Assembly (NCBI GenBank): GCA_965223505.1
Contig: CBDCWP010000040.1
Location: 96,001 to 160,000, forward strand
Length of the DNA: 64,000 nucleotides
Source: Planctomycetota bacterium
GTDB lineage: Bacteria; Planctomycetota; PLA2; JAEUHO01
Reading direction: 5' to 3'
Shown here: positions 16,807 through 43,228 of the stretch, one piece after another
Layout: every line of letters begins with the position of its first letter
How positions within the stretch are numbered: position 1 is the stretch's first letter
Translations under genes and position numbers: made by a program
Notes under the pieces: generated by a model
The model's input: only the letters and a program-made list of their open reading frames with translations
Database searches by the model: none
Told to the model about the DNA's origin: nothing

Positions 16807-18963
16807 TTGAGATCCCGAGTGCGCCCTCACATCCCTGTCTTCCTCGCACTCCTCGCGCTGCTCTCGACGGGAAGAGTCGGCTCGGCGGACGAGGACGCCG
16901 ACCACCTCAAAGCGCGAGTCAACGCGTTTCGGCCGTTGGTCGATGAAGCGCCCTGGACGGTTCGAATCGATCCGCTACCGGCAAGCGTCGTCAGGGAGCA
17001 AGCGCAGCGCGCGCCAAAGTCCAAGCGCAAGAGTTATGGAAAGGGGTTTATCGCGGGTTACACGCTGAGTGCCGAGATCCCAGGTGAGGAGGCAAGCGTC
17101 GAGGGGCTCGCCATGCGCTTCGATACGCCGAAGAACGCGGCAGCGTTCGTAGAGCTCGAGCGGGAGATCTTCAGGGGCGAACGCAGCACCAAGGACGTCA
17201 AGATCACCACGCGGACCTTCACGCCGAAAGCCGGCGTGAACGGCACGATCCCTGGCTTCTTTCTCAACCGAGTCATGGACTTCGGCGGCGGACTGACGCT
17301 CGAGCTTCGCGCGCACTTCATCCACCGAGAGCACTACGTCGCGGCATTGATCGTCACGGACGCGCCTCAGGTCACGCTCGCTTCGCAGCACGACGCGATT
17401 GCTAGAGTCGATTCGCTCCTTGTTGATCCGACCAAGGTGCGAAAGCGCTCAGCGCCGGACACAGCCGCGGGCAAGGAGAATGACGTCCGGCGCGCGATCC
17501 GAGACCTCGCTCACACCGAGGCCTCCAAACGCGCCGACGCGGCGATCCTGCTCGGCGAACGTTTCCCAGAGGGCGCGATGGCCGTTCCGTTGCTCGAAGT
17601 GTGCCTTCGTGACGAGGACAAACGCGTCCGAGAGGCGGCCGCACAGGCCATCTCGGCGCTCGCAACTGCCGCAGCCCCGGTTCTCGCCGAGTTCCTGTCC
17701 GACACAGCGCATCAGCAGAATGTCGCGTTCCGCAAGGCGCTGGCCTTGCTGCGCGAGCTCGGAGCGCACATCACACCCTTTGATCTCGACAAGGTCGAAG
17801 GGCGGGCCGCGAGAGCTGCTCGGCTGTGTCTGGCGCCGCCCGAGCGGGACGCGACCCTCGCTCGCCACGTCCGACCGCTGACGCGAGAGATCCTGGCATC
17901 CGACGCGGGCCTTTTCGCACCTGACCATACGGTTGACGAGCAATCCAAGATCGCGTGCGCCGCGCTGGCGCTCTTCGGGCTGGACGCGCTGCCGCAACGA
18001 CCGGCGTTGCCGGAACCGGGCGGCCTCATGAAGCTGCTCGCACATGGTGATCCCGATGTGCGCTGGGCTGGCGTTCAGCTGGCCCGCATCGTTGGTAGTG
18101 AATCGTCCAAGGTGCGTGATGCTGTACAGAAGGCAACAGGCGCCGGCGGGCCCCCTACGTTGCGGCTTAGGAAGGGTCTGACGGAGTTGATCGAGAGTCT
18201 TCCGTCTGCGAATGACGATCCTGATGACTACAACCCGTACTCGCTGCCCGTGACCATCGAAGACTTGGCAGCCCTCGGCAAGAAGGCGGGGCCCGCGCTC
18301 CCGCGCCTGCGCCAGCTCTACGTGATTACGAGGAAGCATGAAGGCCACGTCGCATCGGGACTCGACCTGTCCATCGGTGGTGCCATCTGCCAGATCGCCG
18401 GCCCGAGCAAGGAGTATCTCGATCCTCTCATCGAAGCGCTCGCCGACGCCTCTGCCGACCGATACAGCAAGGAGGGTGCGCGGGGCGCGAACGCCGCGTG
18501 GTGGCTCATTAATATAAATTGGGACGCGGTACCTGAGGCAACTCGCAGGCGGGCTGGCAAGGCTGCTTCAGCGGCGCTCGAGACGGACGCCACTGGGCTG
18601 CAGGGGTGCATCCTCGCGCTGCTCGTCGCATTGGGAGACGCAGCCAAACCGGCGGCAAGTCGAGTCGGGACGGTATTAGGAGAGGCCGACGTCCGGTATC
18701 ACGAACTCGTTGATGAAGTACGGAAGGAGGGTCGATTCGTCGAAGGCCCCGGAGCGGTCAACGCGATCTTCGTTGCTCGGACACTCGCTTTCATCTCGGA
18801 AGTTGCGATTCGTCATCGCGCCATCCACGTCCTTGCGAACTGCGCGCCGCACCACGCCGCGACGCGTGCGTTGCTAGTGGGCTACACCGAGGGCAACGAT
18901 CCGCTGCTGGCGTGTGAGGCGGCGGCCGCGTTGCGTCTCGTGGGAAACGCCAACGAACGCTGA
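16807..18963 (+). CDS. Secreted HEAT-repeat protein
   Basis: RBS GAGGAGG before TTG; signal peptide; AVPLLEVCLRDEDKRVREAAAQAI and LLAHGDPDVRWAG HEAT repeats. Confidence 0.65.
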   Translation: MRSRVRPHIPVFLALLALLSTGRVGSADEDADHLKARVNAFRPLVDEAPWTVRIDPLPASVVREQAQRAPKSKRKSYGKGFIAGYTLSAEIPGEEASVEGLAMRFDTPKNAAAFVELEREIFRGERSTKDVKITTRTFTPKAGVNGTIPGFFLNRVMDFGGGLTLELRAHFIHREHYVAALIVTDAPQVTLASQHDAIARVDSLLVDPTKVRKRSAPDTAAGKENDVRRAIRDLAHTEASKRADAAILLGERFPEGAMAVPLLEVCLRDEDKRVREAAAQAISALATAAAPVLAEFLSDTAHQQNVAFRKALALLRELGAHITPFDLDKVEGRAARAARLCLAPPERDATLARHVRPLTREILASDAGLFAPDHTVDEQSKIACAALALFGLDALPQRPALPEPGGLMKLLAHGDPDVRWAGVQLARIVGSESSKVRDAVQKATGAGGPPTLRLRKGLTELIESLPSANDDPDDYNPYSLPVTIEDLAALGKKAGPALPRLRQLYVITRKHEGHVASGLDLSIGGAICQIAGPSKEYLDPLIEALADASADRYSKEGARGANAAWWLININWDAVPEATRRRAGKAASAALETDATGLQGCILALLVALGDAAKPAASRVGTVLGEADVRYHELVDEVRKEGRFVEGPGAVNAIFVARTLAFISEVAIRHRAIHVLANCAPHHAATRALLVGYTEGNDPLLACEAAAALRLVGNANER

Positions 18964-18970
18964 CGAGATG

Positions 18971-19345
18971 CTACAAACGCTCTTCTCTTGTATCTCGTAG
19001 TCGGTCCAGCTGTCGATGCGTTTTTCTTCTCGAGTTCCAACTCCCGAAAGCATCCACGATTGCAGGCCAGTTGTCCTGAACTACTGCGATTTGCTCATTG
19101 AACGAGAGGTAGTCATTACCCGGCCCAACGAGCAGGTCTCGCAGGAGAGCTGGGTCGTACCACTCCTTCGGCTTCTTCGCATCGGCGACAGCGACAAACC
19201 GCTCACCCATTTCGTCTCCAATTTGGACGGCGACGACCGGTCCGGCATAAACGTCGTCCTTATAGAGACCCTCGCGGGCCTGGCTCCTGTGACGGAGACC
19301 CATTCGCTTGAGGAACGCCACGAATTCGACTGGCTCGAAGTTCAC
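18971..19345 (-). CDS. Putative immunity protein of the upstream polymorphic toxin
   Basis: 124-aa ORF with RBS AGGAGG, starting 10 bp after the toxin stop; size, position and EWYD..LL motif fit immunity genes (recalled resemblance). Confidence 0.6.
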   Translation of the reverse strand: MNFEPVEFVAFLKRMGLRHRSQAREGLYKDDVYAGPVVAVQIGDEMGERFVAVADAKKPKEWYDPALLRDLLVGPGNDYLSFNEQIAVVQDNWPAIVDAFGSWNSRRKTHRQLDRLRDTREERL

Positions 19346-19355
19346 GATTGGCCTC

Positions 19356-22300
19356 CTAAGGTGGTGGGTTCATTCCGTTTCGCGTACGAACGTAGCCGAG
19401 TTCCTCGAGCCACTTCACCTCTTTTCTGACCCAGGCTGTCGGACGTGCTTTCTTCAACGGTTGTAGGAAGACAACTCGCTCGCGACGCGCAGCTGTTTCT
19501 CGGATGAAGTTCCGAAGCAGTGCCGTCCGCTGCTCACCTGTCAGTGCTCTCCACTTCGTCTGGGAGACTCGGAAGTGGCGGGCGCCAGTTGCGCGGGCCT
19601 CAACGGCCCAGTGCCGTCTCGCTGAACCGAGTACCGTAACGCCGGACTTCGTCGGCGGCGTCGGCGAAACTGGCCGCGGCCCACCAAGTTTGAAGTCCCA
19701 GGGATTCGCGGTTACTGGAGGCTTGGACGCATAGACATGACCGGCGGCTAGCCTGACGTCCAGGAACAACCCCCAAGCCTCGAGCCCCCCCAGCAGGATG
19801 CTGTAGGCCGAACTCACGAGCTCGTTGAGCTCCTTGGAGAAGGTGAGGGCTCGCTCGATGTCACCCAGCGACTTGGTGATCTCCTGCTGCACCAGACCAT
19901 TCGGATCAAGCGCGAGGTGCGCCGCTGGATCGTCATCGAGCAACGCGGCCTCGAAGCCTGGGTGCAGCATTCGATCCAGTTCCAGGCTGATTCTGTGCGC
20001 GTCAGCCGTCAGGTTGTCGTACATCGAGACGCCATGGCGTCCGTATGCACCTGACGGCCCGAAGATCCTGAGCGACTCCTGCGCCACGATCTCAAGCGAC
20101 GCGTGCACCGAGTAGAGCTGCGCGGCACGGGTCAGTAGAGCGGACTTGGTTCTCAGCGTCTCCAGGTCTTCGAGGAGGCGATCACAATCGCCGACGTTGC
20201 GCCCCCGCTCCAACGCCGATCGTGAGTCGAGCTCGATCCCCAGAAGAGACTGCCGGGCCGAGCCGATCCGCTGTGCAATCGGGGTTGCCCAACGCGCCTT
20301 GGCAGCACGCTGGACTGACTGAATCGGAAATCCGCCCTCGTTCGGATTGAAGAGCCCCTTGTGTTGCGCGGCGCCTCTAGGCCGCTGCCGTCTAACATGG
20401 CGGGCGTCGGCGGCTCTGCCCTTGAGCCTGTCCTCGAGTCTCGGTGCGGCCGCAGCAGCTTGCTCGAGCGCCGACGAGGCATCGCTGATCGCGGTCGCCG
20501 CTTCGTTCAAAGAAGCAAGCAGTTGACTCGCCTCCAGCCAGGCGCGCTCACATGGATCAGACGTTTCGTCGAGTCGCTGGAAGTCCGGAATCGGATCGCC
20601 ACCGCCTTCGGGCACTACTGTCGGCAGCCGCCGGGGCTCTTCCCGACGGTCTCTCTTCCGTTGCTCTGCGTACTCGATGCGCGCTTCGGCCCCTGCCCGC
20701 TCGGCGTCCGCAACGTCCGTCTCAAGCTCTCGGATCTCGGCATCGAGTTCCGCCCGGCGTGCTCCGGTTGTACCCAGATTCGCCTCCAACGTCCGGTCGA
20801 TGATGCCGAGCTTCGCCTCGTACTTCTTTTCGATCAGGGAGCGTTCCTTCCCGACGGGGCGACCCGTCCTCCGTCGCTCATCCCGAAGCTGCTGGAGCTC
20901 TCGCTCGAATGAACTGAGAGTCGCCTCTAGCGATGAGATTGCACGAATTCGAATCAAGATTTCGTTCTGCAAACGCTCCTTCTCGCGACGAAGCCGAGCG
21001 AGCTCAGCCTCATGCCCTGCGGTGAGTGTCCGGCGACCTTCAATCTGCGCGATTCGATGCATCGTCTCCTGGAGTTGAGCGCGAGCCTCGTCGAGGTTCG
21101 TCTCTTCCTCGGCGATCCGCTCTCGAAAGGCATCGCCAACTCGGCGCTCGGCCAGGAGCTGTCTCGCCAACCCGCCGAGCTCGCTCGGCACGCCAGGCGG
21201 CCCAGGCGTCCTCTGAGTGCCATCGGGAGCTCGCATCTGTCTGCTGGCGGGGGCGTAGCGACCAACGCCCATGAGACCCAGTCTTCTGTCAATCTCCGCG
21301 AGATCATCGACGAGTTGGTTGACTCGCGCCTTGTCAGATGTCTCTTGGATCGCTTCAATCACGCGGTTCCGCGCCCGCCCCAACTGCTGCGCATCCGGAG
21401 GCAGGACGGCTGCCTCCTCCAGCTTCAGCACCGGTTGTGCTAGCGGGATGGCTGCAGGAGCGATGGCCGGCGATCCGACCGCGGGAAGCGAGGGCAGCCT
21501 CGGCACGAGCGGCGGGAGCCCTTTGAACGCCGCCGCGCCACCTGGGTTCGGAAGCGCGTCGCTGACATTGGCCTCCACCCAGTGCTCGAGGACACCGAGG
21601 TGCCGCAGCTGCTGCTCGACAAGTCCGATCCGCCGGTCGACGCTCTGTATCTCCCCCTGAAGATCAGCGCGGCGCTTCTCGCCCCACGTCGTTCGGCGTT
21701 TGTACTCGAGCTTGGCCTTCTCACGACGCAACTCTGCAAGGGCCGCCCTCGAACTCCGAACGCGCTCCTGATCCCGCCGGGGCACTGCTTCGTCTCTGGA
21801 GCGCCAAAGTGCATGGGTAGCCTCGTCGATCTGCGCCAGCAGGTTCGCGTACTGGGCCCTGGCCGCAAGCACCGCGTCGACACTCGAGTCCGGATCATTG
21901 ATCGTAAGAAGAGCGAACTTCGCCAGCTCTTGAAGTTCGCGGAGTCCTTCCAGGTTCTCTCTGACGTCGGGGTCGTCATCCCCTTCGATGGCACGATCCC
22001 CCCGCCCTCCGTACAGCTCTTTGACCTGAGCGGATGTCAACTGCCCATACGATGCGATCTGCAGGTTCGACTGTGCTTGATCGATTCCGTTGTTGAGCTG
22101 GCCGATCTCAGCGTCAATCCTCGCCTTTCGGTCGGGATTCGCTGTGTGTCTCTTCTTGTTCTCGAGGCGCTTCCGCCTTCGCCTTAGATCAGCGACCTTT
22201 GCGCTGTTGTACCTTCGAGCTCCGGCAGCACGCGCGTTGTTGAGAGCCTTCATCGCAGCGTTGCGCTTCCGTTGCGCCTTCTGGGCGGCAGCGAGCGCCT

Positions 22301-23809
22301 TGTCGTATTTGGCTTTGCTTCCTTTGCCTTCGTTGAGCTTCTCGCGCTCCTCCGCTTCTCGCTGTATGGCGTCGTACAACTCGTTGTCGCGCTTGATAAG
22401 ATCGTCAACGGCCTTCTTGACCTTGGGGTCCTTTTCGAGAGCGCGCTCAGTCTCCTCGTCGTACCTGTCGTACTGGTCGTCGTACTTGTCTACGAGCTTA
22501 GGTGGCTCGATCTGTGCTAGGAACAGCGGCGGCGCCGTGGGCACGCCAGCCGCTTCTCGACGCGCGAAGACTTCTTCGATCATTCGCGCCGCACCCGGCC
22601 CCCGGGTCGTCTCGGTCGAGTCCCCGTCGCGCTCGCCTCTGCTTTCCCCTGGCGGCGGAGGAGGAGGTGGCGGGGCCGATGGTGCCTGGGGTGCGTACTC
22701 CCGCTCGGGCGGCGCGCCGCCGGGTGGCGTCGCCGGCCGGGACGGCTCCTCGCCGTGAGGCGGACGCATCGCCGGAACGACGACCTGAGGTGTGGGCGAA
22801 GCGGGAGGTCCAGGCGGTTTCGGCGATCCCTTGCCACGCCCCTCTCCAGGGAACCGCGGGACGCCACACTGCCATGGTGTCTCATTGAACGGGTACGGCA
22901 ACGGGTAGCTCGGAACGTAGTCCGCATCGAGCCATCGACCACTCTCATAGTCGGGCTGCGGCACCGGTAGCCACGGATACGGATACGGACATCCCCGCGG
23001 GAGGTCCCGCTGCGCAACCCAGGCGTAGTCCCCCAAGGGCCTCGGCTTCGTTGGAGGCCCGTAGAGCGACTCCATTGGAAGCTGCAAGAGCTCGTCCACC
23101 GAGCCCTCTCCAGTCAGGGCGCGCCCGAGAGACGTCTGTCGAAACGCTTCGTCGCGTTGCCGCTGAAACTCGGCCTCCCGCTCTTCGAGCTCTCGGTTCG
23201 ACGCGCCGATCGGTTGACTGTCGGTCCCGCCGATGACGGTGTAAGGCTGCCTGGCATCGGGCAGCGGCGTTGGCACTTGCACCCATCGATACTGCCAGCG
23301 GCCAGGATCCGCGTCGTCCATGTAGGCCTGCAGATGGCGGCCAGCCTTCGCGAGTTGCCGGATCTCATTGTGAGCCCGCTGTTGTGGACTTCCGAAGCGG
23401 GCGTGAACGCCCGGTGCGATGTCGTACACCTTGCGGCGCGCGTTCCACCGAAGCAGTCCGTCTTCGATGACCTGCGGCGGAGTAGCCACGGATCCCCAGC
23501 TCGGATCGAACTGAGTGATCTCATGCAGGCGCGAACGCTGCGGCGTGCTCGGCGCGTTTCCCCAGGGCTGGCGCAATCCGGGTGACACGCCGCCTCCAGG
23601 TCCCAAGAGTCTCCCGTTCCCCAGCTCGGATCGAACTGAGTGATCTCATGCAGGCGCGAACGCTGCGGCGTGCTCGGCGCGTTTCCCCAGGGCTGGCGCA
23701 ATCCGGGTGACACGCCGCCTCCAGGTCCCAAGAGTCTCCCGGCAGCGTACGGATCGAATTCCGGCCGACTCGCAACGTCTCGGACGTAAGGGTTGAAGAC
23801 ACTCGGCAT
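19356..23809 (-). CDS. Large Pro-rich/coiled-coil protein with C-terminal polymorphic-toxin-like domain; split by a 125-bp tandem duplication (1,442 aa if one copy is removed)
   Basis: ATG 23809 overlaps the upstream TGA; ORF 19356..23606 continues after the duplication; C-terminal TVLGS...GARHF...W...E...L..LGY domain. Confidence 0.7.
23493..23741. repeat. Perfect tandem duplication, 124-bp unit with 125-bp period
   Basis: 23493-23616 is identical to 23618-23741. Confidence 0.95.
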
Positions 23810-24651
23810 CAGTAAGCCTTCGGGTCGATCGATTCCACGCTACTCAGCAGGCTTCTGACGCGCCGGTTGTACTCGGCCCAGGTTTCGTCAGGTCGCTTCT
23901 CCGGTCGCCTGAAGGTCGCCAGTTCAGAGGCCGGTGTCGGGGGCTGCAGCCCGTATGGCCGCACTTGCGTGCGAACGACACCCGGAGGCGAGAAGCTCGC
24001 TTGCTGCGCATGCACCATCCAGCGCTCGGCGTCGGAGAGGCCCTTCTCTCGATACATCTGCCGTTGATACGCGCCGCCGACCGGACCCGCGGTCGATGCG
24101 GAAGGGCTCGAGTAGCCGATAGGTGCTCCGGACGTCGCGTCGAAGGGCTGGCGGCGGGGCGTGACGGAACCGCCGTACGCCCCACCGACCGGATCGAACG
24201 ACGAAGGCCCTTTACTTACGGCATGCAGCGGTTCATACGCTGTCGAAGAGGGCCCGGGACTCGGCGCTGTGCGATGTTTCAAAGAGGCGACGCTGCGCCG
24301 CTCGCCATAGTAGGCGTCCTGAGGTCCGTACGAAGCCGCGATTGGGAGAGCTCTGTACGCATCCTCCATCGGCGTCGGCGGTGGAATGTACGGCTGCACG
24401 CTGCCTGGTCCCTGCGCGAGGTTCGCACGCGCTTGTTCGAGGAACCCAACGGCGCGAGCGGCTTCCTGAAGCTCACGGAGACTCTGCTCTCGGGACTGGA
24501 GGTACTCAGGCTCGGGAAGCGCTGCCTGCCCGCCTTCACCCTCGGGAAGCATCTCGGTCGTCTGAGCGTACCCAAGCGCGAGTTCGTCGCCCAGGCCGCC
24601 GAACGGGAGCGGAAGTCCGGCTTCCGTTGAGGAGACGTAGTTTCTCGGCAT
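23809..24651 (-). CDS. Pro/Ser-rich hypothetical protein in the capsid operon (candidate scaffold/cargo)
   Basis: 280-aa ORF with RBS; repeated PVGGAY; coupled to the next gene. Confidence 0.65.
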   Translation of the reverse strand: MPRNYVSSTEAGLPLPFGGLGDELALGYAQTTEMLPEGEGGQAALPEPEYLQSREQSLRELQEAARAVGFLEQARANLAQGPGSVQPYIPPPTPMEDAYRALPIAASYGPQDAYYGERRSVASLKHRTAPSPGPSSTAYEPLHAVSKGPSSFDPVGGAYGGSVTPRRQPFDATSGAPIGYSSPSASTAGPVGGAYQRQMYREKGLSDAERWMVHAQQASFSPPGVVRTQVRPYGLQPPTPASELATFRRPEKRPDETWAEYNRRVRSLLSSVESIDPKAY

Positions 24652-24696
24652 CGTCAGACCTCGATTCCTTCAAGGGACTCGTGTGAACGAGGTGTT

Positions 24697-25608
24697 CTAC
24701 GGCGTCACGTCGCTTAGCCGGATCAGCGAACCCGGCGACAGAGTCGCGAAGCCGATGTTGAGCTCCAGGTCCGCGTACAGCAGGTCCGCTTCCGCCGAAG
24801 TCCGGTGCGGACCGTCCACGCGGATGCCGGCACCGGTGTCTTCGTTGTAGAACCACACCAAGCCGCCGAACTGGGGCTCGTCGTCTCTGGGACCGAGGAT
24901 CGTCAGGTACACGGACGTCGTCGTTGCCGTCTCGGTGTCGGTGATGAAGTCCGACACGAGCACCGGCACGCCCATGTAGCACGCGACCGGCAAACCGAGG
25001 ATCGGGTCCGGCTTGACTTGCGGCGTGAAGCCGGAGGCGTGGCAAAGCGCGGTGAACGCGCTGTACTGGCCGCGGTTCATCACGAACGCGCGCGGCGTGC
25101 CGCCATCCCACGGGTAGAGCGCCTCGATCATCGAGTCCAGGTGCGCCAGCGTCAGCGCCCCGGCCGCACTGATCGTCTGCGCGGCCTCGACCAGCGTCTC
25201 GAGTCCCGCCGGCTCGTCCGTGACGTTGTCGCCATAGATGAGCTTCTCACCTACGGTGTTCCACATCGCGATCATCTTCTCTTGGATCTGCTGCTCGAAG
25301 ACGTCGTTGATCATGCTCACGTTCTGAGCGATGTCGCCGGTGACCTCGACCTTGGCGGCGATGCGGCGAAGCTCGAACTTGCGCGCCGTCGAGTCGTAGG
25401 TCGTCGCCGAAGCGTCCGCGTTACCGCCGGAGTCGATGAAGCTGGCCGTCGCCAGTGTGTCAACCTCGGTGCACTGCAGGCTGTCGCCGCGCACCATCAC
25501 TTTCGGAACCCTTGGCAGGAGCTGATCCGAGTTGTTGTTGACGAGGTACGCGCCGAGTACCTGCGGATGCGAAAGCAGTAGTGCTTGTGCCTTGGTGACG
25601 GAGGTCAT
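24697..25608 (-). CDS. HK97-fold major capsid-like protein
   Basis: LLPRVP, LRRIAAKVEV, VFEQQIQEKMIAM...LIYGD...PAGL, LTLAHLDSMI, FVMNR and YMGVPVLVSDFI match phage major capsid patterns; RBS GAGGAG. Confidence 0.82.
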   Translation of the reverse strand: MTSVTKAQALLLSHPQVLGAYLVNNNSDQLLPRVPKVMVRGDSLQCTEVDTLATASFIDSGGNADASATTYDSTARKFELRRIAAKVEVTGDIAQNVSMINDVFEQQIQEKMIAMWNTVGEKLIYGDNVTDEPAGLETLVEAAQTISAAGALTLAHLDSMIEALYPWDGGTPRAFVMNRGQYSAFTALCHASGFTPQVKPDPILGLPVACYMGVPVLVSDFITDTETATTTSVYLTILGPRDDEPQFGGLVWFYNEDTGAGIRVDGPHRTSAEADLLYADLELNIGFATLSPGSLIRLSDVTP

Positions 25609-25645
25609 TCTCTCTTCTCCTCAATGGGGACGTGTCGAAGGCACG

Positions 25646-26509
25646 TCAACAAACGACTTCTTGACGGCGTGGGATCCAGCGGAAGCTCCAGCCCGAGCCG
25701 TCATTCGGCTTGTAGGGCTGAAGCATCTGTCCCTGCTCGTACCGGGGCGCGACGCGATGGAACCACTCCATCAGCGCCGGCTCCTCCTGCGCGACGAACA
25801 CCGGGTGCATCGCCGCGGGCGAGAAACGGTAGGCGCCGAGCGTCGGATCGAACTGCATGACGACGCCCTGGTACGTAGCGGGCGGCTGCCCCCAACTCGG
25901 ATCGAAGCCGTTGACGATGCAAACGGCCTGCGAGGCGGGAAGCGGTGCCAGGTATTGACGTGTCGGCTGGATCGGCGTCGAAGGAAGGGCCGACGAGGGA
26001 TCGACCAGCCCTGCGTTGTCGAACGGGGCACCCTGAGATCCGTATACGGCCTGTTCGGTGAGCTGAAGCGGAAGCAGGCCGTAGGGCTCGCGATACGCCT
26101 CACCGGGCCTCGACACAGCGGCGAAGTTCGATCCGATGCGCGCGGGCACGGACGGACGCGCTCCGATGGGGTCAACCGTGGCACTCGGAGTCGGAATCTG
26201 TCCGTTGCCGCCCGACCCGATCGGGCCGGGGTGCGGCGATGACGTGAAGTCGTTGGCCCCTGCGCCCAACGGAACGTCGAAGTCGCTGGTCGGTCGTGAC
26301 GGCTGCGGGTGCCAAGAACGCGCAACGCCCGACCCGCCCTGATCGATCGCGAATCCGCGTTCGTCGAACTGGCGCTCTTGGCGTGAGGTCCCGAGCGAGC
26401 CGTCCAGGTCGAGTGGCGCGCCATCAAGCGAGGTGAACGCCCCCTGGCTGTTGATCACGAAGGGCCCGCAGGACCGACAAGCACAGGCAGCCTTGCTCTT
26501 GCACGCCAT
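25646..26509 (-). CDS. Pro-rich hypothetical protein with Cys-rich N-terminus and C-terminal FDPSWG domain
   Basis: MACKSKAACACRSC start; C-terminal ~80 aa homologous to the toxin N-terminal domain. Confidence 0.65.
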   Translation of the reverse strand: MACKSKAACACRSCGPFVINSQGAFTSLDGAPLDLDGSLGTSRQERQFDERGFAIDQGGSGVARSWHPQPSRPTSDFDVPLGAGANDFTSSPHPGPIGSGGNGQIPTPSATVDPIGARPSVPARIGSNFAAVSRPGEAYREPYGLLPLQLTEQAVYGSQGAPFDNAGLVDPSSALPSTPIQPTRQYLAPLPASQAVCIVNGFDPSWGQPPATYQGVVMQFDPTLGAYRFSPAAMHPVFVAQEEPALMEWFHRVAPRYEQGQMLQPYKPNDGSGWSFRWIPRRQEVVC

Positions 26510-26520
26510 GGTTTCGGGTC

Positions 26521-27501
26521 CTATCCGATGTTCTCCATCCATCCGACGCAGTTCGTGCCGTGGATGAGACCGACGTTGAGTTGAAGCCCGATTTGCGACT
26601 GGTCGGTTCCGTCCTCGGGCTCGAAGTTGGAGATCACGACGCCGGGCGCATGCGTGCTCGCGATCAGGAAGCCGCGTCCGACCATCGCAGAGAGATTCTC
26701 TCGGAGCGACTCGGGCAGTCCGGCCATGTCGAACTTCATGATCAAGGCATTGCCGTCAGGCACGTAGCTCGACTCGATGACGCGCACGCGGTCGAAGAAC
26801 CACTGCTTCTTGCCCGTTACCGAATCGAGCTCGAGCGTCGAGATCCCGCTGCTGGCCATGAGCTGGACGAACTGAGCGTAGACGTCCTGCGCGAGGACCA
26901 TCGTGTATTGCTCGACGGCGCCCACCTGGACATTGAGCATCTGACGCAGGCACATCAGCCCCTTGAACGACAGCGGCATGCCGCTTCCCTCGGGCGGATC
27001 CTGGACGTTGCTCTCGGCCGTCGCGATGTCGTAGAGGCTTTCCGGCGCGTCAGCGACCGGCGTCGTCGCGAAGAACGACGTGTAGGCAGTGGTCAGCATC
27101 ATCTCTGCCAGAGCACGCAGCGCGACATCGACGACGTTGTAGTCGGACTCGCCGATCTCTACGGCGTCATCGATGGTGATCTTGCACGCGAGCTGGCTCA
27201 GTTCCACTGTGCTTGACTGCCACTGCGGCGGATCCGTGTTGATCGACGTGCCGTCGTTGTTGCTCCAAACGGCGTTCGTAACCCACGCATCGAGATTCGA
27301 CAGCGCCGATACGGACACCTTCGACGTCTCGAACTGTGCCCACGGCAACGGTGCGGCCAGCAGCTCGCGGTCGCTGATGACGAGCCCGGTCTCCTGCGGC
27401 GGCTCGACAACCTGCTCACGATTCCAGATGGCGTTCGGGCGGTAGCCTGGTGTCGAGTAGGAGAAGAGCGCCAGCGCTTCGGACTTGGTGGGACCGGCCA
27501 T
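26521..27501 (-). CDS. Second, divergent HK97-like capsid protein paralog
   Basis: Aligns by eye with 24697..25608: TKSEALAL/TKAQALLL, LACKITID/IAAKVEVT, RVRVIESSYV/GVPVLVSDFI, LQLNVG/LELNIG. Confidence 0.65.
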   Translation of the reverse strand: MAGPTKSEALALFSYSTPGYRPNAIWNREQVVEPPQETGLVISDRELLAAPLPWAQFETSKVSVSALSNLDAWVTNAVWSNNDGTSINTDPPQWQSSTVELSQLACKITIDDAVEIGESDYNVVDVALRALAEMMLTTAYTSFFATTPVADAPESLYDIATAESNVQDPPEGSGMPLSFKGLMCLRQMLNVQVGAVEQYTMVLAQDVYAQFVQLMASSGISTLELDSVTGKKQWFFDRVRVIESSYVPDGNALIMKFDMAGLPESLRENLSAMVGRGFLIASTHAPGVVISNFEPEDGTDQSQIGLQLNVGLIHGTNCVGWMENIG

Positions 27502-27579
27502 TTCGAGCACCCGTACGACGACATCGCCTCACCCGTCGTACTCCCGAGGTCAGCCTTGGAAACCCACCTTCTCGACAAG

Positions 27580-27678
27580 CGGGCAACTGCCGGGCAACGT
27601 CCGGGCAACGTCCGGGCAACGACCGGGCAACGACCGGGCAACGTCCGGGCAACGACCGGGCAAGAGCCGGGCAAGCTC
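27580..27678. repeat. Tandem array of nine 11-bp units (CGGGCAAnnnC) in a divergent intergenic region
   Basis: Units start at 27580, 27591, 27602, 27613, 27624, 27635, 27646, 27657 and 27668. Confidence 0.95.
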
Positions 27679-27738
27679 CCACGGTCCCGCGGGTTGAGAC
27701 AGCGATATGATCGAGTGATTTCACACTCAGGAGGTCTC

Positions 27739-28227
27739 ATGACCACGAAGCCCATCCTCACGAGAGCTCCCGGCAATCCGTGGTTCGAGACCGAGGACCT
27801 GGCAGGCGACGTGAGCGCCGGAAGGGTCCGGGTCGCGACTATGGTCGGCTTCTCGCTGACCGGCACGGGCACGGCGACGGACGGTGTCTCGTGGGCCACG
27901 GAGCCGGCGCTGATCACGGACCTGGCCTTCTCGGTGACCCCGGCTGCGGCGGGCCTGAACGGCGGCAACCTGTTCATCGAGGTCAATGCCGCGGGGCAGT
28001 CCGCGTTCTCGAGCGCCGACGGCTGGGTCCAGGTGATGCCGACCTACCACTGGCCCGCGGGCGGTGTGCAGGCCTACGAGAGCAACGTGCTGGGCAAGAA
28101 CCACGTCCTGACAGTGTCCGGGACCGGCGTGGCGCGAATTCGCGTAACGGCAACGCACGTTGGCGGTTCCGACGTCGTCGAAGTCTTCGCCGGCGTGACC
28201 GTTCTGGCGGCCAAGCCCACCTGCTAG
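27739..28227 (+). CDS. Beta-strand-rich hypothetical protein (candidate capsid decoration/spike)
   Basis: RBS AGGAGG; 162 aa rich in T/V/G/A with alternating beta pattern (ARIRVTATH); no signal peptide. Confidence 0.6.
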   Translation: MTTKPILTRAPGNPWFETEDLAGDVSAGRVRVATMVGFSLTGTGTATDGVSWATEPALITDLAFSVTPAAAGLNGGNLFIEVNAAGQSAFSSADGWVQVMPTYHWPAGGVQAYESNVLGKNHVLTVSGTGVARIRVTATHVGGSDVVEVFAGVTVLAAKPTC

Positions 28228-28406
28228 ACGAACCCGGCGACCGGGCCCCAAGTGCGATGCGGCACGGCAGGGCCCAGCTGGCGCTCTCCGACTGTCTCGT
28301 TTTGCAACACGGGCACTCGCCCAAGCCGGACGTCCCGCCGCGAAACAGATCGGCCTCCCGCTCGGCTCGCATCGCCGTACGCTGGAGTTGGGAGAGGCGA
28401 AATGGA

Positions 28407-29179: not shown

Positions 29180-29545
29180 CTACGGTTGACCCCACTTCTC
29201 CTGTTCGCGCGTGTAGATCACCGTCATGCCAGTCCTCGAGCACGTGAGTACGTACTCTTGAGAGAAGTCAATATCGAGATCCTCGCCTCGTAGCGCCTGC
29301 CATTGCGCAAGGTAATTGAGCGTGCCGTATTTCCTCTTCTTGATCTTCTCCTCCACGCCTCCCTTCCAACCCAGGACGGGAAGTTCGCCGTTCGCCGCGC
29401 GTTCGGCAAGCTTCGGGTTTTCTAGGCGAAGCCGCCGCCCGACCTCCCAGCAGACGATCAAGCCTCTGTCCGGACCTCTCCAGCGTTCTGCAAGCGGACC
29501 CTCGATGTCAGGGGCGTTGCGGTGTCTTTGAACCCGTCGGCTCAT
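29180..29545 (-). CDS. Hypothetical protein
   Basis: 121-aa ORF with RBS GGAGAG and protein-like composition. Confidence 0.55.
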   Translation of the reverse strand: MSRRVQRHRNAPDIEGPLAERWRGPDRGLIVCWEVGRRLRLENPKLAERAANGELPVLGWKGGVEEKIKKRKYGTLNYLAQWQALRGEDLDIDFSQEYVLTCSRTGMTVIYTREQEKWGQP

Positions 29546-29677
29546 GGGCGTCTCTCCAACAGCGATCGCACGGGACCACCTCCGGACAACATAGCGCGAA
29601 CGGCGCACCGCGCCGATACCACGCCTTGGCAAGTTGATGTACGCTGCGGGTGCTGGACTGTGTGAGGGCGCTACGAG

Positions 29678-29890
29678 TTGAATCAGGTTGGCGAGCCGCT
29701 CTTCGTTTCGATCGACTGCGAGACGGCGAACTGCGATCTGCGGAGCATCTGCCAGGTTGGTATCGTTGCTTTCGATTCAGACGGCCCTGTCAAGGAATGG
29801 TCGTCGCTCGTAGATCCCGACGACTGGTTCGACGAGGTGAACATCGAGATACACGGAATCGATGAGAACGCCGTCCGGGACGCGCCCAGC
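29678..29890 (+). pseudogene. Truncated DEDDh 3'-5' exonuclease (DnaQ-like) N-terminus
   Basis: FVSIDCETAN...SICQVG...SSLVDP...IHGI...VRDAP, after which similarity is lost. Confidence 0.75.
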
Positions 29891-29899
29891 CCGGTCGAG

Positions 29900-30162
29900 A
29901 GGGCAAGACGCGCAAGCCACTACCTCCCGATCAGGTCGATCGCACGATCCCGGTCATGCCGGAGCGGTGCGCCGGGTGTCGCTCGACACTTCGGCCCGAG
30001 GACGTGGCTGGTGATCCGTTCCGTCATCAGGTCATCGAGATCCCTCCCGTCGTTGCCGAGGTCGTCGAGTACCTCCTGCATGCCCTCAAGTGTAGGCGCT
30101 GCGGCGAGATCACCGCCGCGGACCTGCCCGAGGACGTGCCCAAGCACCCCGCCTCGACGTAG
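29900..30162 (+). pseudogene. IS66-family transposase zinc-finger fragment
   Basis: PERCAGC...RHQVIEIPPVVAEVVEY...CRRCG...ADLP. Confidence 0.75.
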
Positions 30163-30400
30163 AACGCGAAGCCGCGTGTGACGCACTTGAAGTCCGGCCC
30201 GCCGTTCTTCGGATGTTCGGCCGGCTCGATGTGATCGACGTAGCGCACGAGCCAGCGCCGGCATAGCGCCCCCCAGATCGCTCCCTCGATCATCCGGTCG
30301 TCAGCGAGCCGGCGCCGCCACTGCGTCAGGTAACGCGGCGTGAAGCCCGACAGCCAAGTAGCGTGTTCGTCGATTGTGGGCGCATGGACGCGCCGCAGCT
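30150..30400 (-). pseudogene. Fragment of a PD-(D/E)xK-like nuclease; boundaries approximate
   Basis: IEPAEHPKNGGPDFKCVTRGFAFYVEA, truncated at the IS66 fragment. Confidence 0.4.
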
Positions 30401-30668
30401 CGTCCGGCGTGCGCCGACCGGGTCGATCCGTTTGAACCTCGAAGCCGGACTCGCTCCGGTATGGCGCCGTGATCTTGCGGAAGCTCCTCCGCGCGCATCG
30501 AGACCGATGCCGGGCAAGGCTCCGCTTCCTGCGAATGACGGCCGGCCGACGTGCGCACCGGGTCGAAGCCCTTCGGGAGATGCAATCCGTTCGCGCGGAC
30601 ATCGCCGCGGTGAAGGCGGGAGATGCGGAACGACTGCACAACCTTCTGGCTAAACGAGGGCGGTTTCG

Positions 30669-31379
30669 TCAGTAGTCGGTGCGGCAGGCACGGGCTGTAT
30701 TTTCGCGGCGACCCCCGACCATCCGCTTCACGACCTGGACGTGCCAGCACTTGGCGTCGCGGGGATTGCGAGCCTCCGCGATCAGCACGCGCCCGATCCG
30801 GCGCAGCGACAACCCCGCCGCCCGCAGCTCCCGTGCCCGCGCGACCGTGGCCTGCTCGTCGGCATCCTCGACGACCCTTCCGTCCTCGAGCCGGTAGCCA
30901 TAGGGAACGCCCCCGACACGCTCGCCATTCGCTTTCTTGACCGCCAGCGCGGCCTTCGTTCGAGACCGGATGATCGCGCGCTCGTACTGCGCGAACACGT
31001 CGATGACGCCTCTAAGCAGCTGCGCCTCGGGGCCGTCGCCGTTGCCGGTGCCGTCGGCGGACTGCACCCGCGCGCCGTGCCGCTCGCACAGCCGCTCGAC
31101 CAAGGCGGCGGTTAGTACGTCCCGGGCGAGGCGGTCACGCTTCGCCACAACCAGCAGACTGGCGCCTTCGCGCCTTACCGAATCGATCGCAGCGACGAGC
31201 TCGGGTCGCTTCTCGAACGCCGCGCCGCCGGACACGCCACTATCGAAGTGCCAGGCGACGACCACTACATCGTTTCGCTTTGCCCACGTACGGATCGCCT
31301 CGCGCTGTGCCTCGGGTGAGAGGTCCTGGCGGGACGTGGAGCAGCGTAGGTAGGCGATGGCGCAGGTCGGCTCGCTCAT
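30669..31379 (-). CDS. Serine recombinase (resolvase/invertase family)
   Basis: AYLRCST catalytic Ser, DSGVSG, RPEL, KRDRLAR, AQYERAIIRSRT, PYGY. Confidence 0.92.
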   Translation of the reverse strand: MSEPTCAIAYLRCSTSRQDLSPEAQREAIRTWAKRNDVVVVAWHFDSGVSGGAAFEKRPELVAAIDSVRREGASLLVVAKRDRLARDVLTAALVERLCERHGARVQSADGTGNGDGPEAQLLRGVIDVFAQYERAIIRSRTKAALAVKKANGERVGGVPYGYRLEDGRVVEDADEQATVARARELRAAGLSLRRIGRVLIAEARNPRDAKCWHVQVVKRMVGGRRENTARACRTDY

Positions 31380-31541
31380 GTGGGCCTCCAAGGGCGAGGC
31401 GCATGAGGGCGTTGAGGGCCCGGGAGATCAAGGGAACTCAGCCTGTGGGGCGGCAAGCGCGGGGCGGTTTGTCTGTTTCGCGTCGGATCTGCGCCCGTTC
31501 TCTGTCCGACTCCCGCTTCCGCCTCTACGACGCTTGTCAGC

Positions 31542-31790
31542 TCACTTTTCCCTGGAAGGCTTCACTGGCTCTCGTTTGTCCGCAACGGTGTATCGCTGAT
31601 AGCACTGGGCGCAAGTCAGCTCGATCTTGTTGCGCCGCTGGCTCTTCAGAATGCCAAGAACGTCGGACGGCACATCGGAATCTGTTACTTCAATGTCAAT
31701 CGGCGGTGCATCGAGACGGGGCGGAACTGACGCGTCGCGCACCCACTGAATCTGCCCATCACAACCGTCAAGTCTGCAAGAAAAGTCCAT
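31542..31790 (-). CDS. Small putative Zn-ribbon protein
   Basis: CRLDGC...CAQC; RBS GGAG upstream. Confidence 0.3.
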   Translation of the reverse strand: MDFSCRLDGCDGQIQWVRDASVPPRLDAPPIDIEVTDSDVPSDVLGILKSQRRNKIELTCAQCYQRYTVADKREPVKPSREK

Positions 31791-31908
31791 GGTGGACTCC
31801 CCGAGGAGCATCATCGCTCACTCGACTTATCTGTAAGCGTCCTGTGAACCGCGCCTTGCAGCGTTGTTTCGATCCGTCAGGATTCTCCGTTCTGAACGGA
31901 GATGGCCG

Positions 31909-32226
31909 ATGGCAGCGAAGAAACGGTGGCGCGGCAGAGCGACGTACGAGCGGTTGCTCGAGCAGCGCGCGCGTGAGGGCCTGACGTTTTCTGAACTCGC
32001 CGAGCGCTCCGGTGTCCCGGTTGGGACGCTTCAGCGCTGGGCTCGCCGACTGCGAAGCGAGGCGGCGAGCGCGGTCGAGCCCTTCGTGGAGCTCGCACCC
32101 GTTCAGCCGGAATCTTGCGAGGAGCGCGTCGAAGTCGTGCTGTGTTCAGGCCGCACGATCTACCTGCCGACATCGAAACCGTTCGTGGGGCTCGAGGAGC
32201 TCGTGACGCTGCTCGAGTCGTGCTGA
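31909..32226 (+). CDS. tnpA: IS66 accessory protein TnpA (HTH)
   Basis: GLTFSELAERSGVPVGTLQRWARRL...FVEL. Confidence 0.88.
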   Translation: MAAKKRWRGRATYERLLEQRAREGLTFSELAERSGVPVGTLQRWARRLRSEAASAVEPFVELAPVQPESCEERVEVVLCSGRTIYLPTSKPFVGLEELVTLLESC

Positions 32227-32600
32227 GCCTGCCGGACGCGGTGCGCGTGTTCGTAGCGCGCGAGCCGGTGGACTTTCGCAAGGCGCACGACGGGCTGTGC
32301 CAGGTCGTTCGCGACGTCTTCGGCGACGACCCGCTCTCGGGGCATCTGTTCGTGTTCACCAACAAGCGTCGTGATCGTATCAAGCTGCTCTTCTGGGACC
32401 GCAACGGACTGTGGCTTCTGTACAAGCGATTGGAGCGCGGCACGTTCCCGCGCTTCTCGCTGCCCGGACGTGCATCGCGCCGCGAGGTCGATCGTTCGTG
32501 GCTTGCGATGTTGCTCGACGGATTGGAGCCGTTCTCGGCAAAAGTTCATTCGCGTCATGTCCGACGTGTGCGTATAGATGAACGCAGCGCGCATGGATGA
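32220..32600 (+). CDS. tnpB: IS66 accessory protein TnpB
   Basis: PVDFRKAHDGL...LFVFTNKRRDRIKLLFWDRNGLWLLYKRLERGTF. Confidence 0.95.
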   Translation: MLSLPDAVRVFVAREPVDFRKAHDGLCQVVRDVFGDDPLSGHLFVFTNKRRDRIKLLFWDRNGLWLLYKRLERGTFPRFSLPGRASRREVDRSWLAMLLDGLEPFSAKVHSRHVRRVRIDERSAHG

Positions 32601-34185
32601 ACGCACGGCCCTTCTCGAACGTATCAATGAGCTCGAGAACGAGGTGTCGGCGCGCGACGCGAAGATCGGAGAGCGCGACGCTGCGATCGAATCGCGCGAT
32701 GCGAAGATCGCGCAACTCCTACAAAACGTGGATGCGCTCAAGCGCATGATCTGGGGCGGCTCGGAGAAGCAATCGACCAACGCTGCGCCGCTTGAATCCG
32801 CGCAGTTGTTCCTGGCCGGCATCCTCGAGCGAGCGCTGCGCGGGCCTGAGGCCAAGGGTGCGGTGGCCACGAGCCAGATCCAGGTTCCTGCGCACACGCG
32901 CAAGAAGAAGGGGCGCCGCAACCAGTTCCCCGAGCACCTGCCGGTGCTCAAGACGACGTTCGAGCTTGCGGAGACGGAGCGCTCATGCCCCTGCGGCGGC
33001 CATTTGGAGCCGATGGGCAAGCAAACCAGCAAGGAGCTCGAGCGGGTGGAGTTCTCGCTGGTGCACGAGATCGAGCGGGTGAAGTACAGCTGCCGAAGTT
33101 GCCAAGAGAACGTGGTGACCGCGGCGGGTCCTGAGCGGGTGATCGACAAGGGCATCCTGGGTGTGGGGTTCTTGGCGCACGTGCTCACGGAGCGGTTCTT
33201 GAATCACATGCCGTATCACCGGCAGGAGAAGAAGTACGGATCGGAAGGCCTTTCGCTCTCGCGCTCGGTGCTCTCTTCTTCCTCGATCCGCTGCGCACAG
33301 CTCCTGGAGCCCATCGTGGATCAACTGCGGCGCGAGATTCTGGGTTCGGACATCGTGCACACCGACGACACACCGGTGACGATGCTTCAAGACAGCACGG
33401 GCGTGAAGCGCCAGGCGCGGGTGTGGATCTATCGCGACATCGACGGCCGTTGCTTCTTCGATTTCACGCAGACTCGCAGCCGGGACGGGCCACAGAAGAT
33501 CTTCGGCGACTTCGGCGGCTACATCGTGGCCGATGCGTTTCCGGGCTACGACAAGTTCTTCACGCACGGCACGGCCACGGAAGTGGCCTGCTGGGCACAC
33601 GCGCGTCGGAAGTTCGTGGCGGCGGAGTCGAGCGAGCCGAAGCTGGCCAAGGAAGCGATTCGCCAGATCGGCGAGTTGTACGCAATCGAGAAGCTCGGCA
33701 AGGACCTGGACGCGAAAGCTCGAAGAGAGCTTCGCGTACGTGAGTCCCTGCCGCGACTTGGCGCGCTGCGGACGTGGTTCGCGGCAACGCGCTCGACGGT
33801 TCTGGACAAAGGCGCCATGGGCCAGGCCATCGACTACGCGCTATCCAACTGGGACGCGCTCGTGCGCTACACCGAGGACGGGCGGCTTCCGATCGACAAC
33901 AACGCCGCGGAGCGCGCGCTCAGAGGCGTCGCGGTGGGACGCAAGAACTGGATGTTCGTAGGCAACCAGGCCGGCGGCGAGACGGCCGCGGGAATGTACA
34001 GCCTGGTGGAGAGCTGCAAGGCCGCGGGCGTGAATCCGCGCGAGTACTTCCAGGACGTGTTGCTGCGCATCGCCACGTGCTCGGATGTGACCAAGCTCAC
34101 GCCGCACGGATGGAAGGAACACTTCCTGCCGGACGTCGAGCAGCGACGCCAGAGCGCGCTGAAGAAGCTCTTCGCTCGCGCGTAG
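32578..34185 (+). CDS. tnpC: IS66 DDE transposase TnpC
   Basis: Coiled coil, Zn finger, HTDDTP, CWAHARRKF, IDNNAAERALR. Confidence 0.96.
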   Translation: MNAARMDERTALLERINELENEVSARDAKIGERDAAIESRDAKIAQLLQNVDALKRMIWGGSEKQSTNAAPLESAQLFLAGILERALRGPEAKGAVATSQIQVPAHTRKKKGRRNQFPEHLPVLKTTFELAETERSCPCGGHLEPMGKQTSKELERVEFSLVHEIERVKYSCRSCQENVVTAAGPERVIDKGILGVGFLAHVLTERFLNHMPYHRQEKKYGSEGLSLSRSVLSSSSIRCAQLLEPIVDQLRREILGSDIVHTDDTPVTMLQDSTGVKRQARVWIYRDIDGRCFFDFTQTRSRDGPQKIFGDFGGYIVADAFPGYDKFFTHGTATEVACWAHARRKFVAAESSEPKLAKEAIRQIGELYAIEKLGKDLDAKARRELRVRESLPRLGALRTWFAATRSTVLDKGAMGQAIDYALSNWDALVRYTEDGRLPIDNNAAERALRGVAVGRKNWMFVGNQAGGETAAGMYSLVESCKAAGVNPREYFQDVLLRIATCSDVTKLTPHGWKEHFLPDVEQRRQSALKKLFARA

Positions 34186-34304
34186 CGTCCCCTACGTGAC
34201 TCGCCGACGAACGCAAGGCGGGTTTCGCCGGACGCTTACACTTATCTTATACTGAGCAAGTCGGCCTCCGGGGTCGGCGCAGCCTATGATCCTGTTGCGT
34301 CCCG

Positions 34305-34799: not shown

Positions 34800-34867
34800 C
34801 GCGAGTGCGGGCGGAGTCAAGCGTCGCACTCCGCCAACGCAAGTTGCCTACCAGGGACGATCCAGTC

Positions 34868-42847: not shown

Positions 42848-42966
42848 GGCCCGCGCCTCACCCTGCCATCGACTGTTCCCAATGGACCAAGTGTTGGAAC
42901 AGTTGGACCAGTCATCCTTGCCTTCACGGGTGCGCCGATGCACGCGCGCGCCCACGGAGGCATGCA

Positions 42967-43179: not shown

Positions 43180-43228
43180 GGGAGCCCATGTCCGATTGCT
43201 TTCTCACCTTCCGCGTGGAGCCCAAGTT

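Follow-up and report, generated by a model that had tools for sequence, protein, structure and literature searches.

A five-gene module on the minus strand of a Planctomycetota bacterium genome is the subject of this work. It lies in a 64,000-nucleotide (nt) stretch, hereafter the window (GenBank assembly GCA_965223505.1, contig CBDCWP010000040.1, positions 96,001 to 160,000 of the forward strand). The genes run in the order capA, class-1 gene, capB, X and class-2 giant gene, with a small conserved gene divergent from capA. The products of capA and capB are HK97-type shell proteins, and the class-1 and class-2 proteins share a domain of about 90 residues. Throughout, class 1 denotes short Pro/Gly-rich proteins that carry this domain at the C-terminus, and class 2 denotes proteins, long (as the giant of the window) or short, that carry it near the N-terminus.

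A domain common to class-1 and class-2 proteins

The two coordinate ranges in which a first-pass annotation had noticed the resemblance translate exactly to the strings that it quoted. Comparison of the whole proteins by BLASTP returned one significant segment (giant residues 22-109 versus residues 202-290 of the Pro-rich protein; E 3e-5; 26% identity over 93 columns), confirming that a domain is common to both; since the second-best segment reached only E 0.077, the remainder of the two proteins is unrelated, as had been claimed. The resemblance also withstood shuffling: the 94-residue segments gave a Smith-Waterman score of 80, compared to 27-28 ± 5 for shuffled sequences (z about 10-11), and a score of 80 was reached by 0 of 5000 shuffles irrespective of which partner was shuffled, and by 0 of 500 when the whole giant was shuffled. 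We therefore rejected a merely compositional (Pro/Trp-rich) similarity, against which the confident fold described below speaks as well. The bacterium's genome (5.15 Mb, 44 contigs) has no further copy of the domain.

Short FDP/FNP motifs had also been said to recur in the surrounding proteins. Quantification of F[DN]P revealed over-representation relative to shuffles, with 2 observed versus 0.13 expected in the Pro-rich protein, 1 versus 0.03 in protein X and 3 versus 0.04 in the upstream N-terminal piece of the giant; neither shell protein contains one. FDPY occurs near the N-terminus in 4 of 16 aligned class-2 rows. The FDPVGG of protein X is kept in neither of the two X homologues examined, and the FDP tripeptides of X were rejected as a conserved feature of the system.

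AlphaFold2, given a 48-row alignment of the domain, predicted a compact alpha/beta fold with high confidence (mean pLDDT 95.7, pTM 0.82). In the model, short N-terminal strands are followed by a hairpin (residues 26-35), by two helices (38-48, 51-65) and by a closing hairpin (68-73/82-87), and the first and last strands pair. Residues W13, G14, P16, P17, Y34, W81 and R84 are invariant in all 48 rows, across both classes, and F9 and Q71 are nearly so. Class 1 is further marked by two cysteines, one just before the FDPxWG turn and one at the C-terminal end: of 41 rows, 37 keep the pair, 2 have neither cysteine and two fragments carry only one, and neither is found in any of 9 class-2 rows. Because the first and last strands pair in the model, the pair looks like a class-1-specific clamp, either a disulfide or a metal site; taken together with the N-terminal CxCxxCG of class 1, the end cysteines likewise suggest a disulfide or metal clamp. 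Foldseek with the domain model returned best E values of 1.7 (PDB) and 0.48 (BFVD), VIA-align against 48,161 representative chains gave a best Z of 3.2, and the domain profile reached a best E of 0.77 against PDB sequences. The absence of matches does not prove that the fold is new.

A nine-row profile of the domain, in which seven rows were of the short-protein form, was scored against 1.84 billion protein representatives and retrieved 53 proteins at E ≤ 1e-3, 39 of them at E ≤ 1e-10. P0051 and P0055, long repeat proteins with several weak partial stretches, were discarded as false positives, and the 51 accepted members comprised 40 of class 1 and 11 of class 2. Class-1 members are mostly 200-330 amino acids (aa) long or fragments, with the domain forming their last residues. 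Class 2 consists of five proteins of 806-1410 aa alongside shorter forms and fragments; its domain lies at about residues 16-230, or as far in as ~370 where the protein is a fragment or a fusion. Evidence linking the classes extends beyond the window pair, since the profile found long proteins with an N-terminal domain that were outside the seed (P0018, 5.6e-18; P0025, 6.6e-16). P0018 carries two copies in tandem, and P0025 has one copy and a partial second at its N-terminus. In a maximum-likelihood tree of 51 domains (39 class 1, 12 class 2; P0011 and P0013, in which an insertion interrupts the domain, two partial members (P0050, P0052), both false positives and the incomplete second copy in P0025 were omitted), a single branch with support 100/99 separates the classes; both forms therefore trace to one old duplication and have been kept together since.

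Scans of both window proteins found no model for the domain in Pfam, PHROGs or NCBIfam, and searches of the full-text literature, supplements apart, turned up neither the domain nor the operon; the domain is a real, new family. It was present in 4 of 41 related genomes and in 2 of 401 genomes of an even sample of the phylum. A scan of the viral contig collection revealed no relative of the class-1 protein, a metagenome contig scan with this protein gave a single match (a 1.2-kb contig), and a word-indexed search with the N-terminus of the giant returned nothing beyond the window's own protein. One 452-aa protein (P0045) has the class-2 N-terminal region and domain after an N-terminal part that, judged by eye, looks transposase-like; either a class-2 gene that has received an insertion or a chimeric gene call may lie behind it. 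On a contig labelled Myxococcales (L004, 1110-1376) we observed a stretch of about 30 residues, NGFDPRWGTPPG and onward, with the remainder of the domain missing; it is a relic or a chance fragment.

The class-1 gene of the window starts 11 nt past the capA stop. Its product has an N-terminal CxCxxCG, a Gly/Pro/Ser-rich linker and the domain at its extreme C-terminus. Linker residues 21-190 include 22 G, 22 P and 19 S among 170 residues (37% Gly/Pro/Ser), and the linker contains two conserved motifs, PIGxRPSVPxRIG (26132-26170) and EPYGxLPL (26066-26089). All six homologues found by the word-indexed search (39-53% identity) are of identical layout, and none carries a precomputed Pfam annotation.

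The N-terminal ~260 aa of class 2 are conserved (30-43% identity) and comprise FDPY in some members, GPGGxVxPGLRxPFG, the domain and PYxVLG. Long forms add a Cys/Pro/Tyr-rich motif of ~65 aa (DYAWVxQRDLPxGCPYPYPxLPVPxxDYxSGRWLxxDYVPSxPLPxPxxxxPWxCGVP), which is conserved in P0049, P0047, P0018, P0025 (twice) and the class-2 proteins of loci L016 and L019. The helical region of the window's giant gave weak coiled-coil-type matches, all far below cutoffs (CENP-F_leu_zip at 840-913, SMC_prok_B at 826-1125, LmuB at 549-971), and the PADLOC match to LmuB was dismissed as coiled-coil noise. The last 350 aa of each of six long class-2 members match none of the others; those of the window's giant are unmatched among 6 other class-2 proteins, with an unconvincing best E of 0.041 to PDB sequences. 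Class 2 thus joins a constant N-terminal part to variable C-termini, as polymorphic toxins do; such a layout would be expected if interchangeable payloads were attached to a common loading handle, and polymorphic effectors use it also. The first-pass annotation had named the giant a toxin, a label that we found unsupported: scans of Pfam, NCBIfam, PADLOC and PDB revealed no recognised toxin or immunity family in the giant or in the open reading frame (ORF) downstream of it, and "toxin" is here a guess.

One homologous locus holds a class-2 protein with a sub-threshold lipase/thioesterase-type match at its C-terminus. This locus (L015 9309-13783, G010:C148) contains, in order, capB, a 915-aa giant gene with the weak lipase/thioesterase C-terminus, a gene resembling formylglycine-generating enzyme (FGE)-sulfatase genes, a 3' fragment of capB and the start of a second giant gene with the domain. 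The 915-aa giant resembles its paralogue over the first ~100 aa only and is devoid of the domain. The locus has the look of a displaced cassette.

In the window, the domain copy of the giant has a 3-residue insert (SVA) after FDPSWG that is absent from the other 15 aligned class-2 rows, and the 5' end of its gene carries a perfect tandem duplication. Together with 9 further bases, the duplication (134 nt, 23482-23615) puts ATG 23809 out of frame with the long ORF. Contigs of three sequencing runs join 23481 to 23616, skipping the 134 nt; the frame from 23809 is then continuous and SVA is absent. Because these runs share a single sample of one study, perhaps the one from which the window was assembled, they are not independent support. 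The piece upstream of the duplication, 23618-23809, aligns with other class-2 N-termini via FDPY and GPGGxVxPGLRxPWG. An assembly artefact or a minor variant is the likeliest origin of the 134-nt segment, and ATG 23809 is the probable true start of the giant.

Two HK97-type shell proteins in a recurrent module

The capB product matched phrog_212 (major head protein; 1.7e-22), NF045672 (5.5e-16, below its cutoff) and Pfam PF05065 (phage major capsid; 33.1 bits, above the gathering threshold of 24.2). PF05065 and PF17236 were its only Pfam matches at E ≤ 0.1, and PF04454 was not matched. The capB model (pLDDT 89.4) is that of an HK97-fold shell protein, as an encapsulin would require, and its top seven structural matches were all Family 2A/2B encapsulins (Z 23.3-25.3, rmsd 2.2-3.1 Å, 237-269 residues), and the entries that came next, namely phage capsids, a capsid-forming island and a gene transfer agent, did not exceed Z 20.1; Foldseek gave an identical ranking. 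Against the Family 2A sequence model NF041162, capB scored 24.2 bits (E 1.6e-5; cutoff 380), and at 303 aa, with no Pfam match of that kind at E ≤ 0.1, it lacks the cNMP-binding-type E-loop insertion of Family 2B. According to PMC8346489, Family 3 encapsulins carry a false PF05065 annotation and the Family 2 structure is nearer to PF05065 capsids than Family 1 is, and the PF05065 match is therefore not decisive between phage and compartment.

Across five loci, capB is 63-72% identical, compared to 20-53% for capA across the same loci; the capB family is compact, none of its 55 clusters falling below 56% identity. The capA product has no Pfam or PHROG match. Profile-profile alignment (hhalign) nevertheless related it to capB (probability 97.5%, E 7e-12, 16% identity over 243 columns), and capA is present in all five loci that cover the region upstream of the class-1 gene. 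A sister-family genome (L017 541-2752, G033:C444) has no domain match and carries, side by side, two ORFs of distant capsid type (E 4e-24 and 3e-14 against the capB profile); the pair may be a remote variant of the two-shell arrangement.

The gene order of the window recurs on a contig of a metagenome-assembled genome (L003) and in three genomes from the bacterial family to which the window belongs (L014, L015 and L016), and L019 provides a further capB-class 2 pair. The domain gene adjoins capB in 6 of 6 loci with a flanking gene (the window, L003, L014, L015, L016 and L019), so profile matches are tied to capsid-type genes, as a loading role predicts; L005 (1.2 kb) and L011 (1.8 kb) were too short to judge linkage. 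Each locus with enough sequence holds one class-1 gene and at least one class-2 gene. Among the 41 relatives, the domain and a capB match at E ≤ 1e-170 occur in the same four genomes and nowhere else, and three others have only distant capsid matches (2e-8 to 7e-23) and no domain. Class-1 and capB matches also occur on contigs of identical size (6894, 4922 and 20303). The features of the window are collected in Table 1.

Table 1. Features of the module and its surroundings in the window (positions counted from the first nucleotide of the window)
Feature	Position	Strand	Description
124-aa ORF	18971..19345	-	directly downstream of the giant; module membership uncertain
Class-2 giant gene	19356..23809	-	ORF of 1416 aa from TTG 23606 in the window; ATG 23809 probable true start
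Rest of giant	19356..22826	-	Pro-rich linker, long helical region, C-terminal ~350 aa without family match
Second class-2 element	22827..23030	-	residues 193-260, Cys/Pro/Tyr-rich motif
Shared domain, class-2 copy	23262-23543	-	residues 22-115 of the 1416-aa ORF
Perfect 125-nt tandem duplication, 2.0 copies	23493-23741	.	copies 23493-23616 and 23618-23741
Protein X	23809..24651	-	280 aa, low-complexity; helical N-terminal ~100 aa conserved; stop overlaps ATG 23809
capB	24697..25608	-	303-aa HK97-fold shell protein, best-conserved module gene
Shared domain, class-1 copy	25649-25930	-	94 aa, FDPSWG..PP..Y..two helices..LQPY..WxFRW..C; C-terminus of the Pro/Gly-rich protein
Class-1 protein	25646..26509	-	287 aa from ATG 26509; longer ORF-finder form starts at 26542
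capA	26521..27510	-	329-aa distant capB paralogue, second HK97-type shell protein
Small conserved protein	27739..28227	+	divergent from capA; ORF-finder form starts at 27556
Serine resolvase	30669-31391		
IS66 and accessory ORFs	31864-34185		
Large terminase	38383-39702		
ParB-methylase	40159-41496		
Tyrosine integrase	45658-46806		
HTH/ImmA-IrrE regulator	46941-48119		

The N-terminal ~100 aa of protein X are 37-40% identical in L003 and L016 (E 4e-9 to 5e-11); X has no family match (Pfam, PHROG, NCBIfam) and is missing between capB and the next gene in L014 and L015. The small divergent protein is 37-43% identical to capA neighbours in L003 and L016 (E 8e-27 to 6e-33), marginal in L014 (9e-4), and without a family match in the same three collections. 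The 124-aa ORF gave no match in Pfam, PHROG, NCBIfam or PADLOC, is without a PDB relative and has no homologue in the other loci, most of which end before that position. An 11-nt unit, CGGGCAACGAC, is repeated 8.6 times at 27580-27674, in the intergenic region between capA and the divergent small gene, and this array may be regulatory; a promoter/terminator scan of 18800-28400 gave nothing that exceeded shuffles.

Pfam, PHROG and NCBIfam scans found no portal, protease, scaffold, terminase or tail family among the seven other proteins scanned in the window (five module genes and two neighbouring ORFs). By these scans the operon is free of phage genes, as encapsulin operons are, and lacks the portal, protease or scaffold, and terminase that stand beside the capsid gene of a phage head module; the nearest terminase is 11 kb off, beyond IS66. 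In L014 and L015, ordinary host genes directly flank the module, and a terminase was not seen in those flanks. A mobile-element island occupies 29180-48119 and 51559-51646 of the window, with a tRNA-Leu gene nearby; its genes are 3-20 kb from the module and were not seen beside the module elsewhere. Because the other loci lack the terminase, it is unlikely that the module and the terminase at 38-39 kb are one prophage, and this candidate was set aside. At 34868-37695 of the window, a QatC-like protein (PADLOC PDLC02214, 3.5e-50) has a C-terminal DpnII/MboI-type nuclease region and is preceded by a 325-aa ORF without a family; the two are probably a defence system.

These data bear on the idea that the module is a remnant of prophage or satellite head genes, with the domain derived from internal, scaffolding or ejection proteins of a phage and no cellular compartment involved. 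The Pfam and phrog_212 matches of capB, the island (large terminase, ParB-methylase, integrase, ImmA/IrrE-type regulator, IS66 and serine recombinase near tRNA-Leu) and the patchy distribution among relatives and across the phylum would be expected of such a remnant. The recurrence of a five-gene module with closely similar capB proteins and with neither portal, protease nor terminase beside it, the host genes that abut it in L014 and L015, the lack of relatives in the viral contig collection and the position of capB nearer to encapsulins than to any solved phage capsid all speak otherwise, and we regard a phage remnant as improbable.

A candidate docking role for the domain and its alternatives

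A docking or cargo-loading role of the domain is the leading and most economical reading; it is well motivated and unproven. The first-pass annotation had likened the shared segment to encapsulin targeting peptides and proposed that it docks proteins to a capsid or loads them as cargo. The linkage, the significant alignment and a shell closest to encapsulins agree with the proposed role, and the comparison with a short targeting peptide fails, the element being a folded domain of ~90 aa. We propose that the module encodes a rare, chromosomally encoded, encapsulin-like compartment built of two anciently diverged HK97-fold paralogues, capA and capB, in which the domain would mark the non-shell proteins and hold them to the shell, probably at its luminal face. 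Class 1, with its zinc-knuckle-like N-terminus, linker and C-terminal domain, would be a structural adaptor or scaffold. Class 2 would be cargo that comprises the domain, the Cys/Pro/Tyr-rich motif, a coiled coil and an exchangeable C-terminal payload. This full assignment, with the luminal face taken from the analogy to encapsulins, is offered tentatively, as somewhat short of an even chance.

Docking is favoured because the folded domain is the sole element common to both non-shell proteins, is terminal and best-conserved, is restricted to this operon type and has been kept since the old duplication, with capB comparably conserved. Conservation of capB far above that of capA and the invariant residues shared by the domains of both classes fit a common, conserved binding partner, and the terminal position and strict linkage of the domain are consistent with dedicated cargo loading via a terminal domain. 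Binding of the domain to the shell is an inference, and so are the shell protein and the face that it would contact and the purpose of the particle. Complex prediction of capB with the class-1 domain gave a score of 0.00 in two runs without controls, and neither supports nor counts against binding.

Several observations weigh against a docking role of the domain. According to PMC10836720, Family 2A loading depends on a ~225-aa disordered Pro/Gly/Ser-rich region with short motifs and not on a folded domain. Because both non-shell proteins here have disordered regions like those that Family 2 uses for loading, the folded domain is perhaps not the docking element, and the Pro/Gly/Ser-rich regions with conserved short motifs in both classes may be the real ones. 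The 915-aa giant of L015 lacks the domain, which would therefore be dispensable for some candidate cargo. Around the ~30-residue match of L004, genes of the capA/capB type are absent from 11 kb. The terminase gene 11 kb from the module in the window means that the island may be of phage origin. Only six loci provide context, four of them from one bacterial family, which further weakens the case.

The disordered regions lead to a different division of labour, in which the domains of class 1 and class 2 would bind each other or self-associate, the disordered short motifs would dock to the shell, and class 1 would bring class 2 in. Every sufficiently long locus has one class-1 gene together with at least one class-2 gene, the two classes are old and separately conserved lineages, and P0018 has the domain in tandem, all as expected of a pairing module. 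Gly, Pro and Ser make up 37% of the class-1 linker, which contains two conserved motifs, and the nearest shell relatives load via disordered motifs (PMC10836720). The short motifs of class 1 (PIGxRPSVPxR, EPYGxLPL) nevertheless differ from those of class 2 (FDPY, GPGGxVxPGLRxPFG), leaving the folded domain as the only common element, and we consider pairing unlikely, though worth serious attention.

A location outside the shell was also weighed. In that case class 1 would serve to decorate or cement the particle, and class 2 would form a long coiled-coil fibre with an exchangeable distal domain directed at targets, similar to head fibres or receptor-binding proteins. The order of constant N-terminal part, long helical region and variable C-terminal domain in class 2 suits a fibre, as does the lipase/thioesterase-like tip of one homologue, and the class-1 cysteine pair (37 of 41 rows) would suit a disulfide if the surroundings are oxidising and perhaps extracellular. 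The structurally nearest shells, those of encapsulin type, carry their partners inside, however, and no lysis, secretion or tail genes were seen in the module (Pfam, PHROG, NCBIfam); an outside anchor thus has a slim chance in our judgement.

The domain could also have a function unrelated to the particle, for example as a small-molecule or nucleic-acid binding unit or a chaperone-like folding unit, and be shared merely via duplication inside the operon. Its fold yields no functional lead, and shell binding is itself a deduction, which leaves room for such a role. Its place at protein termini, its strict restriction to this operon type (among 1.84e9 representatives) and its retention in two very different protein contexts since an old duplication speak against it, and we give the idea little credence.

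Returning to docking, the giant class-2 proteins permit a further, speculative version that we hold to be rather unlikely: a capsid-derived particle that carries interchangeable effectors. Giant coiled-coil proteins with swappable enzymatic or toxic C-termini would be clipped on by the domain, and the particle, a relative of encapsulins and gene transfer agents, would serve cell competition or prey attack and not be a metabolic compartment.

Comparison with known systems

Polymorphic toxin systems resemble class 2 in the constant N-terminal ~260 aa with unrelated C-termini, and the second class-2 start of L015, after a 3' fragment of capB, recalls their displaced cassettes. They differ in that no recognised toxin or immunity family was found in the giant or the ORF downstream of it, and no known secretion-system marker is present.

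The scaffolding protein of P22-type phages has a C-terminal helix-turn-helix domain that binds the coat protein, and the class-1 protein likewise carries a small domain with two helices at the C-terminal end of a non-shell protein encoded among head genes. No sequence or fold match was obtained, and class 1, unlike the P22 protein, is mostly disordered and not helical. In phage T4, a common N-terminal tag directs several internal proteins into the head; this capsid-targeting tag is about ten residues long, acts via the scaffolding core and is removed by the prohead protease. The module, in contrast, has no protease or scaffold family detectable with Pfam or PHROG. T4 gp23 and gp24 resemble capA and capB in being two HK97-fold paralogues of very low identity (17%; PMC12407261).

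Metagenomes are reported to contain HK97 elements that lack a portal and are close to encapsulins (PMC13669383). Family 1 encapsulin targeting peptides are similar to the domain in being a terminal element common to unrelated proteins encoded beside a shell gene (PMC8346489). They are short linear peptides, whereas the domain is globular, with two helices and two hairpins, and capB has no match to PF04454.

Two-component Family 2B encapsulins (Enc1/Enc2 of Streptomyces lydicus, 9bje/9bix) are structurally close to capB (Z 23.3-24.2) and have two shell genes per operon, sometimes with a candidate cargo gene between them (PMC12407261). Their operon shell pairs are ~60% identical (PMC8346489), compared to ~16% for capA and capB, and carry a cNMP-binding-type insertion that capB lacks; capA has no match at all.

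Family 2A encapsulins (SrpI of Synechococcus, 6x8m; the desulfurase encapsulin of Acinetobacter baumannii, 8t6r; Mmp1, 8wol) match capB best (Z 24.4-25.3, rmsd 2.2-2.5, 255-269 residues, 19-21% identity), and share with the present system a shell protein of ~300 aa and cargo with an N-terminal loading region. The loading domain of the Family 2A desulfurase (PMC10836720) is like the Pro/Gly/Ser-rich regions with short conserved motifs that surround the domain here. The present system differs in having a folded loading candidate of 90 aa that is also found C-terminally on a second, non-enzymatic protein, a second shell paralogue ~16% identical to capB, and cargo candidates that are giant coiled-coil proteins with unrelated C-termini in place of a desulfurase.

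If the docking reading is true, it would add three novelties to what is known of encapsulin-type compartments. Loading would depend on a folded, transferable domain, a task for which short peptides and disordered regions are known so far; the shell would combine two paralogues as distant as T4 gp23 and gp24; and giant proteins whose ends can be exchanged would form a cargo class. Engineered shells could then be filled with foreign proteins in a practical way, by means of a compact tag of 90 residues and defined fold. With about 50 representatives in 1.84 billion, the family is small; it appears undescribed and points to a rare kind of bacterial protein compartment. By analogy with these relatives, the system would work most like an encapsulin with a terminal loading element, and its structurally nearest counterparts are the encapsulins of Family 2.

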